Program-made: the position numbers and the translations under genes
Source: Candidatus Latescibacterota bacterium
GTDB taxonomy: Bacteria; Latescibacterota; UBA2968; GCA-2709665
Direction of reading: 5' to 3'
DNA length: 64,000 nucleotides
Assembly: GCA_965226795.1 (NCBI GenBank)
Contig: CBDDDZ010000005.1
Coordinates: 2,208,001-2,272,000, forward strand
The notes under the pieces: model-generated
What the model was told of the DNA's origin: nothing
Seen by the model: the letters and a program-made list of their open reading frames with translations, nothing else
Database searches by the model: none
Part shown: piece after piece, positions 6,947 through 57,752 of the stretch
How positions within the stretch are numbered: position 1 is the first letter of the stretch
Layout: each line of letters begins with the position of its first letter

Positions 6947-7351
6947 CTAATTTTTATGGGGAAATTGTCTCATTAATATAGGCACAGAGGGAAAGTCTAT
7001 CTGGGCTGTTCTTAAATTTCTTTTTCCGTTGTATGTGACAAAACGAGGAAGAATAGCCTGTACTCCACACAAAACATGATAGTGATTACTCAGATGTGAT
7101 AATTTTTCTAGCGTTTCGATCTCTCCCTTTGCTCCCGCATAAAATGAATTTCCTTTGTTTCTTTCGAATTGTTGGATCTTTCTTCTTTTTCTCCACTTTC
7201 TTATTCCTGCAAAAATCCCGTCATCTTTTGCATTGAGTTCATTTCTTAGTTTTCGATGTGCGTTTTCTATATCTTCGAATGTTTTCACAGGTTTAGGGTA
7301 CAAGTCCAAGAGCTGTTTTTCACTATCTGGCCTGCCATAGATTATCGCCAT
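6947..7351 (-). pseudogene. NERD (nuclease-related) domain protein, apparently truncated
   Basis: GAKGEIETLEKL...YHVLCGV...TAQIDF then similarity ends; AT-rich segment. Confidence 0.6.
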
Positions 7352-7582
7352 TGGACACACTCCAAGATTACAGAGTTCTCATAATCTAACCTGCGATTCG
7401 CACTCAGCCATCCCATCATTTGCACCATCCGTTCTGTTCGCGTTTATTTTTCTCTCCGCCGCAAAACTCCCGATACCACCCGTTGACAATCACCCGGCCA
7501 CACGACACGATGGGAGATTGCCGATAATGCCGCGCTCTCATTGCCCGCTAAAAGATCGCCAGTCCCCGAAATTGCGGCGTAT

Positions 7583-8128
7583 CTAGACCACGCCAAAGTC
7601 GGGGCGGGACAGGACGACCCATGAAGGCAGACCCAACTGTTTCCACAACGCAAAGGGTTCCAATTCGGAAATACGGCTCAAGAAGAGGCTCAGTACAGTC
7701 CCATGCGTGACAAGAGACATGTTTACCCGTGGAAAGCGGTCTGAAAATTCATATACGGCCTTCGAGAACCTGTCATGCGCTTGATCGGCAGTCTCATCTC
7801 CAAAAACCAGATCCGCAGGTCGCGCGAAAAAACGGCCGATTGATTGCTCAAATCGCTCCTTTTCCAGGAAGCCGACGTTGCTGCGGTCATGTTCGTGCAG
7901 CCCTTCAACGGCTTCTACCGGGATGTTCAGCACCCCGGCCGCAATTTCAGCCGTTTCCATGGCCTTGGGTTCGATGCTGCTGACAACCAGACCGAGATCA
8001 TATCTGTCCAATTTCTCACCAAGTATCCGCGAACGGACGGACCCTTCCTCGGAAAGATGCCATTTGTTGGCAGGAACGGCTGGATCGATATCCGGCAACG
8101 AGTGCTTCACGAGAACAAGCGTCTGCAT
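7583..8128 (-). CDS. Histidine phosphatase family protein
   Basis: MQTLVLVKHS, VSSIEPKAMETA, GLHEHDR, LVTHG. Confidence 0.85.
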   Translation of the reverse strand: MQTLVLVKHSLPDIDPAVPANKWHLSEEGSVRSRILGEKLDRYDLGLVVSSIEPKAMETAEIAAGVLNIPVEAVEGLHEHDRSNVGFLEKERFEQSIGRFFARPADLVFGDETADQAHDRFSKAVYEFSDRFPRVNMSLVTHGTVLSLFLSRISELEPFALWKQLGLPSWVVLSRPDFGVV

Positions 8129-49256: not shown

Positions 49257-50530
49257 ATGGATACACTTCCAATGCCTTCCCGTCCCGACCTTGCACAATA
49301 TGTGAAACGCTCCGAGGATCTTGTCAACTCGGCGCAGTCCGAAAATACCAGCGCGCTAAAGGAGTTCTGCAACGATTGGCTTGAGAAGATTGTCCGTATC
49401 TCCGGACCCGACCTGACGGATTTTATACAGGGCAGCTATCAGCGCGCCATCGGCGAAGTTGAAAAAGGCGCACGTGAAATGAAGGAGAAGGCGGGAAAGG
49501 GTGGCCGGGAATTCGGGCTTGCCGACGCGCAATTTCTCATTGCGCGGGCCCACAGTTTCGAGAGTTGGAACGCGTTTGCCGTCCACGTCGACCTTGCCTC
49601 GCGCGAGACTCCCGATGGGGCTGAGTTCGAGGTCACGGCCGATGCCGTGGCTGACGGGGATCTCCCGCAACTCGAGTCGCTGCTGCGCCGGAATCCGGCG
49701 TTGGCGCATGCCCGCTCCAATCGTGAACATCGGGCGACGCTGCTATATTACCTCGCCGCCAACGGCGTGGAGGACTTTCGCCAGCGGTCTCCCGCCAATG
49801 CGCCGGAGATCGCGCGGCTGCTGCTGGACGCCGGCGCCGAGGTGGATGCCCTGTGCGGGCCGGGTGAATCGGGAGACACGCCCATGTTGGCGCTGGTGAC
49901 GAGCGTTCATCCACACTATCGCGGCGTCGCGACCGAACTGATCGAGATATTCGTCAAGGCGGGTTCCAAAGTGGACGGGGTCAACGGGGACGGCGCGCCG
50001 GTACGCCTGGCCCTCAAGTTCGGATATCCCGAATCGGAAGCCGCCCTGGTGCGTCTCGGCGCAGAGGTTAAGACCGTCGCGATGGCCGCCGGTCTGGGCA
50101 GGCTGGAGCTGACGAGGGAATTCGTTGAAGAACGCGGCGTATCTGAGGCGGAGCAGGCAGCCTCGTTTGAAGATGCCTGTCGGTTCGGACGGACGGATAC
50201 CGCCGAATACCTTCTGGCAAAGGGCGCCGACGTGGACGGACAGGGCACGTGGAAGATGACAGGCCTGATGTGGGCAGCTTCCAAGGTCATATCGACACCA
50301 TGGCCATGATCCTCGGTCACGGTCCCTCGCTCGAATTGAGGAACGAGTTCGGAGGAACCGCGATGGGAACGGCCCTGCATTTCGCGATCAATTCGCCGAA
50401 CCCGGGGGCCGACCATTCGGCTGTGATCGACCTGCTCCTGAAGGCGGGAGTGAAGTTCGAGGGACCCAGGAAAGGAACCGGTGTCGCGAATCTGGACACC
50501 GTGCTTCGCAGGCACGGTCGGATTGACTAG
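49257..50530 (+). CDS. Ankyrin-repeat protein, frameshift near 50285
   Basis: N-terminal PSRPDL...LADAQFLIAR..SFESW domain; LLDAGAEVD, LLAKGADVD, TGLMWA; continues as GTAMGTALH...LLKAG in the next frame. Confidence 0.85.
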
Positions 50531-50690: not shown

Positions 50691-51119
50691 CTAAGGCCTG
50701 ACCTGAGCCGCCCCCTGAGCCTGTCGAAGGGTCGGCGAAGGGTGTTGAAGCGCGGCGAGCGGTTGCCGAATACCAGAGCACCAACGGCCCGCAGCGAAAT
50801 CCGCTCTGTCAAGGGACAGTTTACTCTTTCTGTGTGATTCCATTGCCTCCAAAAGCAAGTCGATCTTGTCGTCATAGTTGGCGACAAGCTTTGGAAGCGC
50901 CCGGAAATCGGCCAAGAAAAAATCGAAACGATCGAACAAAGATCCGTCCTCACCGGCTTCGCCATGACGCCAGATTTCTTCATCGGACGCCTCCACAGAC
51001 AGATGAAAGAACCAGCAGTCCTGTAGCTCATCGGTACCGCAATACCACATATCACGGGTATCCTGGTCCAGGAACCGCTCATAGGTACGAGAAATAGGAA
51101 TCGTGCCTCCCGGTTCCAT
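50691..51119 (-). CDS. Hypothetical protein, 3' end runs into the nested repeat
   Basis: GGAG RBS; terminal LRQAQG residues derive from the repeat. Confidence 0.45.
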   Translation of the reverse strand: MEPGGTIPISRTYERFLDQDTRDMWYCGTDELQDCWFFHLSVEASDEEIWRHGEAGEDGSLFDRFDFFLADFRALPKLVANYDDKIDLLLEAMESHRKSKLSLDRADFAAGRWCSGIRQPLAALQHPSPTLRQAQGAAQVRP

Positions 51120-51533
51120 TTTGTCTCCTTATCGTGCGTCATTCACTTCCATATTTTCCATTTTCACTTTGCAGTTGAATCGAACCGTCTCCCGCCAACG
51201 ACCCGACGGTATGGGTGCAAACGGCGGTTCAGACGGTCAACTTCGCAGCCTCCGACATCGCGTCGTCCGGAAGCAACTACATCAATTTCATCCTGGCCCT
51301 GACCCGTCCGGCGACACCTGAACCCACGGCGACGCCCGGCGTTCATTCCGTGGTCGTCGAGCCTCAATGGTATTACCCGGAGTTTGCACTGCATGCGACG
51401 GACGCGTGCAAGGACGAACCCATGCGCTCTGCGGATGAGGACGGTTGGGGCTATGACCTGGAAAACCGGACATCGTACGAGTACTCTCTTACCGTGAGTT
51501 CCCGTCGCCTTCCTGACTTTGCGAACGACATGC

Positions 51534-51562
51534 TTGACAATTCGCACATAATGCTTTATGCT
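51534..51562 (+). promoter_or_regulatory. Sigma70-type promoter of the four-gene operon
   Basis: TTGACA (51534-51539), 17 nt spacer, TATGCT (51557-51562); ~140 bp upstream of ATG 51703. Confidence 0.7.
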
Positions 51563-51702
51563 GAATTAACCACGCCACCACAGGGCTAAATTGGCTATTT
51601 TGATGACGAGGAACAGTGAGATGTTCCGGTCATGGCTGTGTTTACGCCACCGATTGATCATGTCGCTGGTTCGGCAGGTCTTTCAAACCCAGGAAACACG
51701 AT

Positions 51703-52503
51703 ATGGACAGTATCGAACAAGCATTTGACAACTCCGAAAATGCAGCGAAATCAGCCCTCCAATCCGCTACCAACCTGGTGAAGTTGTCCAGACGTCTGCA
51801 AAAGGCGGCCAAAGAGGGTAACATCGCTGTAATCAAGAAGTCCCGAGGCGGATTTAACGACGCCCTGGAGAACCTGACGCAGGTGGTGGCAGACGCTGTC
51901 CAATCCTGGCCCTATGGAGATGAAGAAGTGGAAGAATACCTCAAGGGTGGCTATACTGAGGAACTGCGTCGTGCCGCCTCGGAAATGGGCCTGGAAATCC
52001 ATGAACGGGACAAGCAGTTGATCTCACACCCGTCCACCTTGCGAATTTTAACCGAGGATGAGGCGGTCCGAATCGACAACAAGAAGATCTCGACCATTAA
52101 GCCGTCCTACCTGGTCGATCTGCTGATCGCGAATCAGAGGAAGCGCAGCCGCTTCTCGGCTAAACGCTTTCTGGAGGCCCTGTACAAAGTGTACTCGGAG
52201 CTTGTGAATGAAGATTCTTCGGACGGACTCATGACGGGCGGCTCCGGGCGCGTGGTACTTTTGGCCAGAATCTACAGGTTGTTCACGTCTCTGCCGGGCA
52301 GTGGACGAGATTATGCTCAAATTGACTTTGCCCGTGATCTTTACCAGTTGGAAACAAGCGGAGTCTCTAAGACGACGTCAGGCGCCAGTATATTCTTCCA
52401 CGCATCCACGGGAACCCGGGGCGCCAGAAACGTCTTCACCTTTGTCGGGCCGCACGGCCAGGACATCAAGTACTACGGCATTCGATTTACAAGGGATGAC
52501 TGA
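51703..52503 (+). CDS. Uncharacterised protein, first gene of the DUF2791/SNF2 operon
   Basis: 266 aa, AGGA RBS, helical N-terminus; stop overlaps next start (TGATG). Confidence 0.8.
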   Translation: MDSIEQAFDNSENAAKSALQSATNLVKLSRRLQKAAKEGNIAVIKKSRGGFNDALENLTQVVADAVQSWPYGDEEVEEYLKGGYTEELRRAASEMGLEIHERDKQLISHPSTLRILTEDEAVRIDNKKISTIKPSYLVDLLIANQRKRSRFSAKRFLEALYKVYSELVNEDSSDGLMTGGSGRVVLLARIYRLFTSLPGSGRDYAQIDFARDLYQLETSGVSKTTSGASIFFHASTGTRGARNVFTFVGPHGQDIKYYGIRFTRDD

Positions 52504-53471
52504 TGCACAACACAATCTCCATCTCTCTTAAGGACTGGCTGCAGGTTATTAACGAAGAGTACCTTTCGTCTTTCGTCCGTGGTGGCGGCGCGTCGATCAA
52601 ATTCGCAGTGCCATCAGACGAGGGGTCCAGGGCTGGTATGTACGAAAAAATGGAGGCCCATTGCCATGAGTTGGACTATCTTTTCATTAAACTGAACGCG
52701 GGTACAATGCGTGCCCATATGCCGCAGGACTTCTTTTTTATGATCGCCAGGCAAGTCGATTGGCGGCTATTGGCTCGCCGCATGATTTTGGGGATGGCCG
52801 CCGAGCAGGGCTACCAGATTGGTGGAATCCGCCCCGGCGTAGACGGCAACGTCTTCGACGCCATCGCGACAGTCAACGGTCTCGAATCGGAGTTCGTGCT
52901 CGGAAACCTGAGGCTGACGATACAGAACACTGTCTTCAAGAACACAAAGATGGCGAGAGATTTCCGGATGTGTATGAGCCATCTTTGCATGGAAGAATAC
53001 AGCCGTGGCGGGTATACTGGCGAGCCGCTCCTGGAGTGGCTGACGGGTGAGAACACGCGAATTAGTGGCGTCCGGCCCTTTTCCATCTACACCAGTATCA
53101 ATCGTAACACGGCCAGATACTTCATCGAATCGGCCCTCTACTGGATTCATCATGTGGGGCACTCCGGAACTGTAGTATTGTTTGACAACGCACGCGTAAC
53201 GGTGGCTAGAAATCCGAAGGACGATCTGCGCTACTACACCAGAGCCATGGCGATGGAACACTACGAGTTACTGCGGGAATTTATCGACGGCGTTGACCGG
53301 TTGACGAGCACGGTACTGGTGGTCGTAACCAACAACGACTTCCTCGACGACAGTGGCGATCGCAGGTCCCGAGGCTACGGGATATATGAGGCCCTGCGCA
53401 CCCGCGTGATGGACGATGTTCGCGATAGGAACAGGGTCAATCCGGTCGCATCCCTGGTGAGGCTGACATAG
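52503..53471 (+). CDS. DUF2791/BrxD-like P-loop protein with degenerate Walker motifs
   Basis: EEYLSSFVRGGGASIKF with no GxxGxGK; VVLFDN at Walker B; YELLREFID; YEALRTR. Confidence 0.7.
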   Translation: MHNTISISLKDWLQVINEEYLSSFVRGGGASIKFAVPSDEGSRAGMYEKMEAHCHELDYLFIKLNAGTMRAHMPQDFFFMIARQVDWRLLARRMILGMAAEQGYQIGGIRPGVDGNVFDAIATVNGLESEFVLGNLRLTIQNTVFKNTKMARDFRMCMSHLCMEEYSRGGYTGEPLLEWLTGENTRISGVRPFSIYTSINRNTARYFIESALYWIHHVGHSGTVVLFDNARVTVARNPKDDLRYYTRAMAMEHYELLREFIDGVDRLTSTVLVVVTNNDFLDDSGDRRSRGYGIYEALRTRVMDDVRDRNRVNPVASLVRLT

Positions 53472-53485
53472 GAAGGTGGAAGGCA

Positions 53486-54754
53486 GTGGCAGTTTGCGCC
53501 GATAAACACAAATTCGCCTCCAGGCGAGCCCTGGAGGCTCTCCGAAACGGCGTACCCAACAGGGACGCAGTGAAGATATTGGGCTGCAACCAGCCTGAGG
53601 CTGAAGATCAGTTCGAAGACATGTTGAACAGGGCTACAGAAGGCGTCGACCTTTCGTCCGGCACTTTCGGGATGCTGGTCTCCGGCGATTTCGGCTCCGG
53701 GAAGTCTCACCTGCTTACTCACCTGGAAGATCAGGCCCTTTCCCGGGGTTTCGTCTGTAGCAAGGTGACCATCAGCAAGGAGACGCCGCTATACGACTTG
53801 GGCAAGGTATTCAAGTCGGCCGTGGATAACGCCCAGATGCCCGACCGCACCGGCCGGTTGATGGAGGAACTGGGACAGGCGTTGAAGCCCGATTCACAAA
53901 AATACGCCGGTTTCTTTAAGTGGGCAAACGACTCCGGCTCTAACGGGCTGAGCCAGATGTTCCCCGCCAGTCTGCTCGTTCACGAACGGGCGGGCGACCT
54001 CGAGCTGAACAACGAGATAGAGAACTTCTGGGCGGGTGACAGAATTTACATTTCCCGGGTCAAGAATGGCCTCAGGCAGATAGGGCAAAAGCAGAGTTAC
54101 ACCTTCCGAGCGCCCAGGGCCGCCGACCTGCCGCCCCAGCGTCTCCGTTTCGCCGTCCAGCTGATCAAGGCTGCTGGTTACAAGGGCTGGGTGGTGCTGC
54201 TGGACGAGATCGAACTCGTCGGTTCGTACTCTCTCCTGCAGCGGGGAAGGTCTTACGCCGAGCTGGCTCGCTGGCTGGGACAGGCCGCCAGCGGGTCCTA
54301 TCCCGGGCTGAGAACCGTGGGTTCCGTCACCAACGATTTTGCTTCCGCAATCATCACGGATGGAAAAAAAGACCGCGACTACGTGGTACCAAAGTTGGAT
54401 AGTACGGATCGTTACGAAAGTTTGAAGGTAGACGCCGATACCGGTATGAGATTGCTCATACGAGGATGTTCGCCGTTGAATCAACCAACAGACGCGGACG
54501 TTCAACTGACCATGGAGAATCTACGGAGACTCTACGCCGACGCCTACGGCTGGGATGCTCCCCCGGTGCCAATAAGGGCCGGCGGCGCCGGGTATCAGAA
54601 CCGGATGCGCTACAAGGTCCGCGCCGCCATCAACGAATGGGATTTGATGCGGCGCTATCCCGATTACCAACCCAACACCGAGGGCGAGGAGTTCCGACAC
54701 CCCTATGCAGAGAACGCCGACCTCGAACGAGAGTCCCGGGACGACACTGATTAG
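53486..54754 (+). CDS. DUF2791/BrxD-like P-loop ATPase
   Basis: RRALEALRNGVP, GDFGSGKSH Walker A, ISKETPL, VVLLDEIE Walker B. Confidence 0.85.
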   Translation: MAVCADKHKFASRRALEALRNGVPNRDAVKILGCNQPEAEDQFEDMLNRATEGVDLSSGTFGMLVSGDFGSGKSHLLTHLEDQALSRGFVCSKVTISKETPLYDLGKVFKSAVDNAQMPDRTGRLMEELGQALKPDSQKYAGFFKWANDSGSNGLSQMFPASLLVHERAGDLELNNEIENFWAGDRIYISRVKNGLRQIGQKQSYTFRAPRAADLPPQRLRFAVQLIKAAGYKGWVVLLDEIELVGSYSLLQRGRSYAELARWLGQAASGSYPGLRTVGSVTNDFASAIITDGKKDRDYVVPKLDSTDRYESLKVDADTGMRLLIRGCSPLNQPTDADVQLTMENLRRLYADAYGWDAPPVPIRAGGAGYQNRMRYKVRAAINEWDLMRRYPDYQPNTEGEEFRHPYAENADLERESRDDTD

Positions 54755-54789
54755 AAGGCGACCATTTCTCCTTCCTGGGGTATACTGAA

Positions 54790-56922
54790 TTGCCGGAACT
54801 TTTTAATGAACTTAAATCGGTGAATACGGGATCCGGCGCGGTGGCCTGGCTGCGGTTCGTCGAAGAAAAGGGCGGTAAAGGCATACGGGCGGCGCTATTC
54901 CAGACGTCCGCACAGGGTGAACCACTGGACTTCTGCTTCACCCGGACGATTTGCTCGGGGTCTGGCGGACAACTGGCAATCGTCAACCCGGGTTTCTTGC
55001 TATCGCTGGTAAAATCACTACTCAGAGCTATCACTTCGGTGCCAACGTTGATACTCGCTCGGGCCGATGAAGTACCTCATGGATCGATCAACGAAGAAAT
55101 AAAGGTACAAGTACCCTTTTGCCGTATCGCAACATCCGGTGTTCGGCCCAATGGCGAATCGGACGACCCTTATAACGAAGGCTATGAATTGCTTTGGGTT
55201 ACTGAAAAACCCAATCCGGATACCGAAGCGAGCCAACTTCTCGTAAAGATACTGGACCGGGGCAATCCCGCTGAACCTTTCGAACGGGCGACTGCAGGAT
55301 TGGACGTGGCCTTTGGCGACGATCGGATTCACGCTGTCACCGACCTTTCGGGTTTGGCCGTTGTAGTGAGCTTATCTTCATTGCCCGAACTCCTTGGATA
55401 TCCAGCCAGTGATTACTCGGCAATTCGTGAGAATATCCATAAGGCAAGTTCAGGCCCACGACCCGACGTAACTCTGGCCGAACGTTTGTGGACCGTTCTG
55501 GCCAATCCGCCGGAACCTTCGCGAACGATCCCGCTGCATTGGGCCGGTGACTTGATGCCCTTCCAGCAGCAGGGTGTCCGGGCTTTGCTGGAAAACCGCC
55601 GGCTGCTGTTAGCCGACGACATGGGCCTGGGTAAAACCGTACAGGCGATCACAGCCTTACGGATTCTCCGGGCACGTCGCGAAATCAAATCGTGCTTGAT
55701 CACGGCTCCTGCAAGCGTGCTGAACCAGTGGCGGCGCGAAATCGAAAAGTGGGCGCCTGAGCTTTCCGCCATCATCATCCGTGGTTCGGTATCGGACCGC
55801 AGTTGGCAGTGGCATGCCGAGAAAGAAATAACACTCGTGAGTTACGATACTCTGAGGTCCGACTTCAGCACCCAATCTCTGGTGGGTCGCAAAAACTGGG
55901 ATGTGGTCGTAGCGGACGAGGCTCAGAGGATCAAGAACCGCAACGATACGAGCGATGCCCTGAAGGGGTTGAAAAGAAATCGCTCCTGGGCTCTGACCGG
56001 CACCCCTATGGAAAATCGCGAAGAGGAGCTGGCCTCGATACTGGAGTTCGTTGATTATGACCGCACTGGAGTGACAAAGCGGTACCGTCCAGGTGTGGAA
56101 TTGCAGAGGCGTCACCGTGAGTTGCAGGTTCGACGCAAAAAAGCGGAGGTCTTGAAAGACCTGCCTGTCAAGCAGGTCACGAAGGTAGACATCGAGTTGG
56201 GCTCCCGCCAACGCGAGAGCTACGATAAGGCCGAACAGGAGGGCATCGTCTACCTCAAGTCTCTTGGCGCGGAAGTCAACGTGCGGCACGTGCTTGAGCT
56301 CATCACTCGCTTGAAGCAAATCTGCAATGCCGACCCAAAGACCGGTGAATCCAGCAAATTAGCAGACATCAAGGACCGCGTGGACCAACTGGTAGCACAG
56401 GGACACAAGACGCTAATCTTTTCGCAGTACGTCAGCGAAACATCCGGCGTGGGGGCCGTGGCCAACCATTTGCGGGATTTCATTCCGCTTACCATCACCG
56501 GAGACTTGCCTCAGCAGGAGCGAGCCGAAATCATCGAACGATTCAAAACCTGCAGCGAACACAAAGTGTTGGTACTGTCGCTGCGGGCGGGCGGTCTGGG
56601 ATTGAACCTGCAGGAGGCGTCCTACGTGATTCACCTGGACCGTTGGTGGAACCCGGCCGTGGAAAGTCAAGCCGAAGACCGAAGCCACCGCATCGGCCAG
56701 ACGGTCAAAGTCAACGTCATCAAGTATTCCTGCATCGGAACCATTGAGGAGCGTATTGACGATATTCTGGAGAACAAACGGGAACTGTTTAACCAACTCA
56801 TCGACGATGTGTCGATGGATCTGTCCGCCCAGTTGAACAGTGATGAACTTTTCGGGCTGTTCGGACTAGAACGGCAGCTCGACTCGTGCTTTCATCATAA
56901 AAAAGGACCAATCCAAAACTAA
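54790..56922 (+). CDS. SNF2-family helicase/ATPase with an unknown N-terminal domain
   Basis: LADDMGLGKT, DEAQ, LTGTPMEN, LIFSQY, RAGGLGLNL, WWNPA, QAEDRSHRIGQ. Confidence 0.92.
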   Translation: MPELFNELKSVNTGSGAVAWLRFVEEKGGKGIRAALFQTSAQGEPLDFCFTRTICSGSGGQLAIVNPGFLLSLVKSLLRAITSVPTLILARADEVPHGSINEEIKVQVPFCRIATSGVRPNGESDDPYNEGYELLWVTEKPNPDTEASQLLVKILDRGNPAEPFERATAGLDVAFGDDRIHAVTDLSGLAVVVSLSSLPELLGYPASDYSAIRENIHKASSGPRPDVTLAERLWTVLANPPEPSRTIPLHWAGDLMPFQQQGVRALLENRRLLLADDMGLGKTVQAITALRILRARREIKSCLITAPASVLNQWRREIEKWAPELSAIIIRGSVSDRSWQWHAEKEITLVSYDTLRSDFSTQSLVGRKNWDVVVADEAQRIKNRNDTSDALKGLKRNRSWALTGTPMENREEELASILEFVDYDRTGVTKRYRPGVELQRRHRELQVRRKKAEVLKDLPVKQVTKVDIELGSRQRESYDKAEQEGIVYLKSLGAEVNVRHVLELITRLKQICNADPKTGESSKLADIKDRVDQLVAQGHKTLIFSQYVSETSGVGAVANHLRDFIPLTITGDLPQQERAEIIERFKTCSEHKVLVLSLRAGGLGLNLQEASYVIHLDRWWNPAVESQAEDRSHRIGQTVKVNVIKYSCIGTIEERIDDILENKRELFNQLIDDVSMDLSAQLNSDELFGLFGLERQLDSCFHHKKGPIQN

Positions 56923-57463
56923 TGTAGAGATGGGGCACAGCGTGATTCGAGCGGTGACCGAAATGCGCGAGACGCAAACCTGCCGCGTGTTTGCAGTTCC
57001 GTGGCAGGCAATCCACACGTGTCCGCGCCTTGCTGTGCCGATCTCGCGATGGCGCACAGTGTGATGCTCAACCCTGCCCTTCGGCCAACGCCCTTTTGCT
57101 GTCGTATATCTACCAATAGACGATATAATGCGATTCCCAGACCCTCGAGCCAAAAGGAGATCTCACATTGCAGGCTCCGACACCGCAAGACAAACTGGCC
57201 GAATTTGACGCCCGCTCGTCGCGGATCGAGGGGATTGTTGAGCCGATGGATGCACGATTGAACAGCCTGCAGCACGACCGATGACGAGCAAGGCCAACGT
57301 AATATTTTGTCCTGGATTCGATGGCTTTTAGGAATCCAGATTACAAGCTTGATCACGCTTGGCACGCTCATTTTGATCGAGCTTGGATAACCCCAACTGC
57401 GGGTTTCCAATTCCGCGAATATAGACCCGCGGCCTCATTGAAGCCCCTTCGACAAGCTCCTAA

Positions 57464-57623
57464 CAGTCCGTTGAAAAAGTCGCTCTGCAGGCGAGGCCGA
57501 GTCATTGTGGCCAAAGACAAGGCGCGCGACCGCGTCGAATCGGGGGATTCGGGGAGGGAGTGCAACGCAGTAATTCGGCCACAAGGGCCGGACGCAGCCC
57601 GGATGGACTTTTTCAACGGGCTG
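57464..57623. mobile_element. 160 bp MITE (intact copy 2, inverted relative to copy 1)
   Basis: TIRs CAGTCCGTTGAAAAAGTC / GACTTTTTCAACGGGCTG; CTAA duplication at 57460-57463 and 57624-57627. Confidence 0.92.
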
Positions 57624-57752
57624 CTAAGTGTCGGTACTGATGCATCCGTCAACGTTCGGCGTTGCTTCGCCATCTTCATTGTTCCCTATTTTCAAAAAAG
57701 GAAATAGTCTCACTATTATATGCACCGAGGGGTATTGCCTTCTATCCCGCAA

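Follow-up and report, generated by a model that had tools for sequence, protein, structure and literature searches.

What might a pair of adjacent BrxD-like ATPase genes do when the first has no Walker A motif and neither stands among the usual partners of such ATPases? The question is raised by four consecutive open reading frames (ORF1 to ORF4; Table 1) in a window of 64,000 nucleotides from the genome of a Candidatus Latescibacterota bacterium (assembly GCA_965226795.1, contig CBDDDZ010000005.1, positions 2,208,001 to 2,272,000). A sequence-only reading of this window had proposed a stand-alone module, probably directed against phages or plasmids, in which a pseudo-ATPase/ATPase heteromer works with ORF1 and a SNF2 translocase. 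We conclude that the cassette is an unnamed new arrangement of known kinds of parts, together with one new protein family. It probably serves in defence against foreign DNA. With confidence a little short of even, we read it more specifically as a derived, nuclease-less form of an unnamed five-gene operon for anti-invader DNA surveillance, working by a loader mechanism. Here, genes A, B and C are ORF1, ORF2 and ORF3, and D-E is ORF4, which is fused in the window and is two genes in relatives.

Both ATPases pass the gathering cut-off (22.2 bits) of PF10923, the BrxC/BrxD family also known as DUF2791, with 33.9 bits for ORF2 and 71 bits for ORF3. Both miss the BrxD equivalog NF033438 (cut-off 350), ORF3 scoring 64.2 and ORF2 23.5 bits, and the SngB model of PADLOC matches only the P-loop (E 3e-6). 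Walker A is present in 78 of 80 ORF3 sequences (GDFGSGKS, G67-S74, in the window) and in none of 81 ORF2 sequences. At Walker B, ORF3 has D240-E241 (80/80), and ORF2 has D228 (75/81) followed by N229 (70/81). These scores and motifs confirm that the operon has two tandem DUF2791-like proteins, the first without Walker A and with DN at Walker B, the second intact. ORF2 keeps the predicted arginine finger of the BrxD family, R301, in 80 of 81 sequences; in the alignment to a Shango-like ATPase, this residue falls on the R of YEALQSR. The protein ends 21-34 residues past this finger, after strand 5, in 74/81, and therefore has no lid. ORF3 aligns through the lid of the Shango-like ATPase, with lid residues R375 and R379 in 77/80, and has no invariant arginine at the finger position, where the best candidate is R309 (56/80). 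The same split is seen in distant relatives, with Walker A in 0/51 B and 37/37 C proteins and the finger motif in 49/51 B proteins. Direct hhalign comparison of ORF2 with ORF3 gives a weak match (probability 7.8). The complementary distribution of Walker A, finger and lid suggests a split-site pseudo-ATPase/ATPase heteromer, and the motifs thus fit the pairing proposed earlier; ATP would be bound by ORF3 and turned over only once ORF2 docks.

The C-terminal part of ORF4 is a complete SNF2 ATPase, as had been stated, with a full motif set (PF00176, E 1.6e-46). Its PADLOC and NCBIfam matches are generic SNF2 matches, the best in PADLOC being ZorD (E 3e-84). The SNF2 part is indeed preceded by about 250 residues, but the description of this segment as unknown does not hold, since residues ~15-177 adopt, in the predicted structure, the RNase H-like fold of Endonuclease V (EndoV), UvrC and PIWI proteins. 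The model of the segment (predicted local distance difference test score, pLDDT, 80) has EndoV structure 3ga2 as its best fold match (Z 10.6, root-mean-square deviation 4.7 over 166 residues), and Foldseek returned 6ozg (E 1.9e-5). Further fold matches were 2qh9, Argonaute PIWI and UvrC; the top Z is shared among matches and does not separate the subfamily. No sequence similarity of the D domain to EndoV was detected, including by hhalign against one EndoV. In EndoV, the first catalytic Asp lies in strand 1. When D is placed in register by secondary structure, its mid-strand-1 residue is Arg or Lys in 53/55 copies and in 24/27 stand-alone copies; E94 is acidic in 54/55 copies and E162 in 53/55. 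Judged by its model, the ORF4 N-terminus is probably a nucleic-acid-binding, inactive EndoV-like domain, although E94 and E162 are conserved. An active nuclease at this position was considered and rejected on the replacement of the first catalytic Asp, as judged from the general EndoV motif and this register. The suggestion that the SNF2 N-terminus is the effector is likewise not upheld: the domain is probably inactive, and there are whole clades in which ORF1-2-3 are under selection in the absence of ORF4.

ORF1 is a new protein family. Comparison with Pfam, NCBIfam and PADLOC gave nothing below E 0.07, and when 103 family members were compared with PADLOC, only two single-member matches appeared (Cas8g, E 3e-4; JetC, E 6e-3). 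Its AlphaFold model (pLDDT 85) has a coiled-coil helical hairpin (residues 4-67), an alpha/beta domain (73-145) and a domain of three helices and a beta-wing (153-264), the last of which appears winged-helix-like by our reading of its helix and strand pattern. Foldseek gave nothing below E 0.37, matches in the structure atlas were unnamed clusters only, and sequence searches of the PDB returned coiled-coil noise only. In an alignment of 124 sequences, conservation is mostly structural, with in addition a helix bearing F-A-R-D-L-Y, and the same alignment contains no cluster of invariant acidic or histidine residues and, for ORF1 as the other effector candidate put forward earlier, no conserved catalytic-type motif. 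Homologues number 411 at 90% clustering and 795 at 50% clustering.

More distant relatives have a larger operon. When JGI metagenomes were searched with an alignment of more distant ORF1 proteins, 597 relatives came up, and 80 of them were retained. These have a five-gene operon, A-B-C-D-E, in which a separate D of ~188 residues precedes 23 of the 24 complete E genes. Stand-alone D was found 27 times at these loci; a word-index search gave only 7 proteins, an underestimate. An Mrr-type restriction endonuclease forms the C-terminal end of E in 16 of the 24 complete relatives (10 of 17 distinct at 95%), with the catalytic pattern D-G-[IV]-D-L...Q-C-K intact in 16/16. Pfam Mrr_cat was detected in all ten long E proteins scanned (E 1e-23 to 6e-27) and in none of five short ones. 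ORF4 stops where the Mrr linker of these relatives begins. In an unrooted tree of the E core (51 rows, 34 of them picked from the GTDB set), the GTDB and metagenome sets, which come from different queries, are parted with support 100, and at least three changes of Mrr state fall within the metagenome set. On this unrooted tree, Mrr was likely lost in the lineage of the window. By eye, and with no matched baseline, restriction-modification (RM), toxin-antitoxin (TA) and related genes make up 20 of the 102 nearest neighbours of the five-gene relatives, and type I or III RM genes adjoin the cassette at four loci (L201, L216, L223 and L227). The defence reading is strengthened because the orthologous SNF2 protein carries Mrr in so many complete relatives, often near RM genes.

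Two of these loci have unusual layouts. At L216 (3978-15650), a type I RM locus surrounds the cassette, which has hsdR on one side and the gene of a YgjP-like peptidase on the other; D has been deleted there, with its first residues joined to E. At L184, C and D are separated by an inserted small DUF433 pair (7324-7967).

In the same phylum, a sister family combines an ORF1 homologue (E 1e-9) with two BrxD-like genes, both with Walker A, that match ORF2 and ORF3 respectively. Because this family pairs the ORF1 homologue and both paralogues with a very large Lhr-type helicase fusion (Table 1), the helicase appears to be exchangeable; between the two helicases of the fusion there is a possible RecB/Cas4-like stretch. 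Tandem BrxD-like pairs were also seen after a protein of ~290-300 residues at L132 (6819-11534) and L133 (6769-13037), where the second ATPase has an extra N-terminal domain; L133 has a UvrD-like gene upstream and a broken helicase gene downstream. A Shango-like locus (L131, 7013-12841), with a gene that is TerB-like by our reading, an ATPase and an Lhr-type helicase, is present in the same-genus genome G002, which has no cassette.

The cassette is a ~5.4-kb insertion. The block shared with same-genus carriers starts at 51503-51506 in five of six, ends at 56881-56888 or later and includes the promoter. All five same-genus genomes without the cassette that we compared (G002, G004, G005, G006 and G009) have an empty site, at which an ankyrin-repeat gene and the downstream genes are separated by 10 to ~1,300 bp, as against 7 to 8 kb in the window. 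Strong ORF2 matches were found in 8 of 14 other genomes of the genus, and the closest relatives of the cassette are in Candidatus Latescibacterota. Across GTDB, where all counts refer to the best 80 of 138 loci, ORF1-2-3 occur in order in 79 loci, the set covering eight phyla, and the remaining locus ends at a contig edge; gene order is therefore conserved elsewhere, as expected of the stand-alone module that had been proposed. After the trio, ORF4 is fused in 50 loci, split into two genes in 8, cut by the contig end in 2 and missing in 19. The ORF1-ORF2 overlap is retained in 74/81. In a quick tree of ORF3 (84 rows, fragments under 380 residues dropped, midpoint root), the group of the window joins a copy from Dehalococcoidia (SH-aLRT 98); another copy from the genus of the window joins Alphaproteobacteria (95). 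Given these groupings and an ORF3 identity of 70-74% across phyla, we infer horizontal spread followed by vertical keeping within genera. Within the genus, Nei-Gojobori ratios of non-synonymous to synonymous substitution rates (dN/dS) are 0.17 for ORF1, 0.16 for ORF2, 0.16 for ORF3, 0.37 for the ORF4 N-terminus and 0.11 for the SNF2 core; a second estimate agrees, with A, B, C and the SNF2 core spanning 0.11-0.19.

The layout of the four genes had been described as a compact operon, and on re-reading this is exact: ORF1 and ORF2 overlap at TGATG, gaps of 14 and 35 bp follow, and no ORF is interrupted. The sigma-70-type promoter is where it had been placed. Its pattern alone occurs at chance level (4 sites against 3.5 expected), but both hexamers and the 17-nt spacing are identical in 6/6 same-genus copies, while the spacer sequence varies. 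A TATACT hexamer 5' of ORF4 was rejected as a promoter element, being kept in only 2/6 genus copies. That the operon opposes the direction of the local genes holds only in part, as the ankyrin gene ending ~1.2 kb upstream is also on the forward strand. We compared four metatranscriptome assemblies, whose RNA contigs come from a strain ~2% different. In X2, four overlapping contigs cover 51579-57459 at a depth of 25-31, against 0-2.4 over the ankyrin gene and the genes beyond 57675, and X3 is similar. Contigs start at 51579 (X2), 51581 (X3, same study), 51579 (X9, other study) and 51496 (X1). These contigs are a weak hint of transcription from the cassette promoter.

We propose a mechanism in which B and C would form an obligate AAA+ heteromer of the ORC/Cdc6 clade, with C binding ATP and B giving the arginine finger, such that ATP hydrolysis would occur only at the B-C interface. 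A would add a DNA-binding winged-helix domain in trans, and D, as a dead EndoV-like fold, would recognise unusual DNA, whether distorted, modified or forked. On foreign DNA, the A-B-C complex would then load or license E, the SNF2 motor. The E of relatives would cut this DNA with its Mrr domain; in the copy studied here, E without a nuclease would block or strip invader DNA, or call a nuclease encoded elsewhere.

Several results weigh against a role in defence or against parts of this mechanism. In a scan that took in the closest three genes to either side (296 of 308 clusters, with our own gene calls and with RM, TA, CRISPR and related genes counted by eye), defence and TA genes make up 38/296 near clusters and 13/150 distal clusters (150 of 228; p=0.21). 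Only the comparison with random genes of one genome, that of the window (7/136, p=0.017), makes this excess significant. TA modules and Uma2 nucleases account for most of the near matches; such genes may be no more than markers of insertion hot spots. The flanks of the cassette in the window are free of defence genes. PLSDB has no plasmid match for ORF1, a distant ORF1 or ORF3, and IMG/VR none for ORF1. In the window's clade, the 81 loci have no Mrr in any frame, nor a remnant or an adjacent Mrr gene, so that the effector step is missing in this clade. No fold search confirmed the winged helix of ORF1, as the matches were filled by the coiled coil (1-72) and no fold was returned for 73-264. 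Finally, in six of the genomes whose loci lack D-E, the trio is kept under selection, which is hard to square with E as a required effector. The anti-phage or anti-plasmid role put forward earlier thus stands in part: it gains from Mrr on the orthologous SNF2 protein and from the RM neighbours of relatives, and loses by the weak island enrichment in its own clade. The same holds for the association with defence islands, suggested near the five-gene relatives, weak in the clade of the window and absent at its locus.

The genome has a single Mrr_cat gene, on another contig beside an AlbA-like gene (G000 C4:483604-484650). It is unrelated to the cassette; it is a candidate nuclease in trans, with no evidence linking the two.

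One alternative is that the cassette does act in defence but A-B-C is the working unit, for example as a clamp on invader DNA or as a growth arrest that follows triggered ATP hydrolysis, with D-E and Mrr as an optional back-up. A-B-C is the only invariant part of the operon, and its helicase is interchangeable in sister systems. Six helicase-less copies from Vicinamibacterales have dN/dS of 0.25, 0.16 and 0.23 (A, B and C) at dS ~0.2, which points to selection on the trio in the absence of D-E, provided that the loss is ancestral to the six. D was not found in any of ten genomes with three-gene loci, in searches made without a positive control genome, and the best SNF2 match in five of them is 41%. 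However, ORF3 is broken in 4/19 helicase-less loci, as against one broken core gene in the 60 others (p=0.011), and none of A, B and C has a visible effector domain. We consider this alternative unlikely.

A second alternative is a horizontally spread module for DNA repair or chromosome maintenance, in which D would sense damaged bases as EndoV does and SNF2 would clear stalled complexes. The EndoV/UvrC fold of D would suit this role, EndoV itself is present in only 1 of 41 related genomes, the clade of the window has no nuclease, the cassette neighbours are mostly metabolic, and transcription seems steady, a weak hint. A maintenance function is nevertheless hard to reconcile with a cassette that occurs in only part of the genus and is exchanged across phyla, with the fusion of E to a restriction-type nuclease among RM genes in relatives, or with D being the fastest-evolving part. 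It is quite unlikely in our view.

The cassette could also be a disarmed remnant that slowly decays after the loss of Mrr and does little. A reduction series from five genes with Mrr to five without, four with a fusion and three can be drawn up, and broken genes are more frequent in the three-gene forms; but the four ORFs are intact with dN/dS well below 1, the promoter is conserved, and the Mrr-less clade has itself spread over eight phyla, making decay decidedly improbable. A selfish or mobility-related module (an addiction cassette or a TnsC-like targeting ATPase) is very improbable, for although the cassette is inserted at an otherwise empty site, there is a very weak profile match to a TnsC chain (E 0.047) and 16/296 near neighbours are transposases, that match covers the P-loop only, mobile genes show no enrichment (p=0.23 and 0.33), the conserved neighbour clusters of the 80 loci include neither a transposase nor an integrase, and PLSDB and IMG/VR gave no plasmid or viral matches.

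The preferred reading, a nuclease-less surveillance operon with a loader mechanism, also has to be set against described systems. No description of the operon was found in PADLOC 2.0, Pfam, NCBIfam (as a system) or the open-licence papers searched. In line with the novelty claimed for it, no described system is matched in full; PADLOC 2.0 and NCBIfam give partial BrxD/SngB and generic SNF2 matches, far below equivalog cut-offs. According to one report (PMC12839542), ATPases of the BrxD/SngB type are part of BREX types 2 and 6 and of Shango, and their role is uncharacterised; BrxD is there an ATPase of the ORC/Cdc6 clade, proposed to load or activate its partner helicase, and BrxHI is Ski2-like. 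The cassette resembles the BrxD-BrxHI dyad of type 2 (Pgl) and type 6 BREX in that a PF10923 ATPase directly precedes a superfamily 2 helicase. It differs in having two paralogues, one of them dead and truncated, in its SNF2 rather than Ski2/Lhr-like helicase, and in lacking PglX, PglZ, PglW and BrxC. No fifth gene is conserved beside the four in the 80 GTDB loci, which bears out the earlier statement that the BREX and Shango partners are absent. The window's genome has this single PF10923 locus. BREX acting in trans was rejected: the only PglZ match in the genome is a 518-residue receiver-PglZ protein, PorX-like by our reading, 440 kb away beside a kinase-like gene.

Shango consists of the TerB-like SngA, the ATPase SngB and the helicase SngC. 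Like Shango, the cassette has an accessory protein, a PF10923-family ATPase and a helicase in a row, and ORF2 and ORF3 both align to a Shango-like ATPase; unlike Shango, it has no TerB-like gene, its ATPase is split into two complementary genes and its helicase is of the SNF2 type. In the eukaryotic origin recognition complex (ORC), a helicase-loading heteromer of ORC/Cdc6-clade AAA+ proteins, the arginine finger used by an active subunit comes from an inactive one. The likeness, an inactive/active AAA+ heteromer with helicase loading, is one of analogy only; as to homology, the comparison covers only the clade assignment of BrxD in PMC12839542, and any winged helix here would be on a separate protein. 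ZorD of Zorya type I, according to PMC11890865, joins SNF2 to an Mrr-like nuclease, the layout also seen in E of the relatives, and is the best PADLOC match of ORF4. However, ORF4 scores 151 against a ZorD cut-off of 1500 and has no Mrr, and ZorA, ZorB and ZorC are absent from the conserved clusters and neighbour scans. Hma, as given in PMC11232893, comprises the Snf2-nuclease HmaA, which protects via its nuclease, the methylase HmaB (DUF1156) and the DUF499 ATPase HmaC. Hma shares with the cassette relatives a Snf2 helicase with a C-terminal PD-(D/E)XK nuclease beside an ATPase, but the four ORFs have no DUF1156 or DUF499 match, the nuclease of the relatives is Mrr rather than the NOV_C of Hma, and the window's copy has no nuclease domain.

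Table 1. Coordinates of the cassette, its parts and a sister system (window positions unless a locus is named).
Feature	Position	Strand	Description
ORF1 (A)	51703..52503	+	266 aa, without Pfam family
ORF2 (B)	52503..53471	+	322 aa, apparently dead BrxD/SngB-family AAA+ core
ORF3 (C)	53486..54754	+	422 aa, BrxD-family AAA+ ATPase with active-site motifs
ORF4 (D-E fusion)	54790..56922	+	710 aa, TTG start; EndoV-like domain, variable linker, SNF2 ATPase
EndoV/UvrC/PIWI-like RNase H-fold domain of ORF4 (predicted)	54832..55320	+	aa ~15-177; separate gene D in relatives
SNF2 motor core of ORF4	55552..56859	+	aa ~255-690, motifs all intact
R301 codon (ORF2)	53403..53405	+	predicted arginine finger supplied in trans; kept in 80/81 homologues
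Sigma-70-type promoter TTGACA-17-TATGCT	51534..51562	+	hexamers and spacing invariant in 6/6 genus copies
Cassette block common to same-genus carriers	51503..56881	+	blastn against L019-L024 and L142; empty site in non-carriers
Sister system	L129 8161-17365; also L130, L136		~1,900-aa Lhr-type helicase fused to superfamily 1 (AAA_11/12) helicase

Some features around the cassette are recorded here in their own right. The ankyrin-repeat gene (49257-50530) is split into 350 and 93 residues by a one-base frameshift near 50280, where L020 has 424 residues; one RNA contig has an extra base at this point, and the frameshift may be an assembly error or a recent lesion. Between this gene and the cassette (50691-51589) are two small ORFs without Pfam match, of 142 (-) and 124 residues (+). 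Both are absent from most carriers, and the second, which overlaps the promoter, is doubtful. Downstream, at 57461-57628, lies a ~168-bp element with terminal inverted repeats, resembling a miniature inverted-repeat transposable element, that has very high summed depth in RNA assemblies; the genome has 20 near-full copies, and five relatives have ~45-50 matches per genome. Elsewhere in the window's genome, an OLD-TOPRIM ATPase and a UvrD helicase form a Gabija-like pair (L154 4184-8314; G000 C5 about 1962800-1967000). Upstream of the cassettes at L046 and L047 (1238-9375), there is a conserved five-gene cluster with MZB (DUF1998-like) and UvrD-like genes, possibly DISARM-like.

The operon isolates a BrxD-type ATPase from the BREX core, with its active site divided over two genes; because of this division, the loader model lends itself to direct tests by a point mutation of R301 and by simple deletions. 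The natural series of copies with Mrr present, Mrr lost, D-E fused and D-E lost offers a natural experiment on how a defence machine could keep working after nuclease loss, and the ORF1 family that accompanies it is large. In PMC5099237, PF10923 signal in sponge metagenomes was read as Pgl enrichment, and the cassette may explain part of that signal. We also consider, as a doubtful but broader reading, that A-B-C is an autonomous ORC-like machine for heteromeric DNA recognition, a split-site AAA+ pair with its DNA-binding domain on a separate protein, that would load interchangeable helicases (SNF2 with or without Mrr, and Lhr-type nuclease-helicases) and would have a selected job even without nuclease or helicase. 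If true, this reading would define a large unnamed family of systems and would show what the BrxD-type ATPases of BREX and Shango do.

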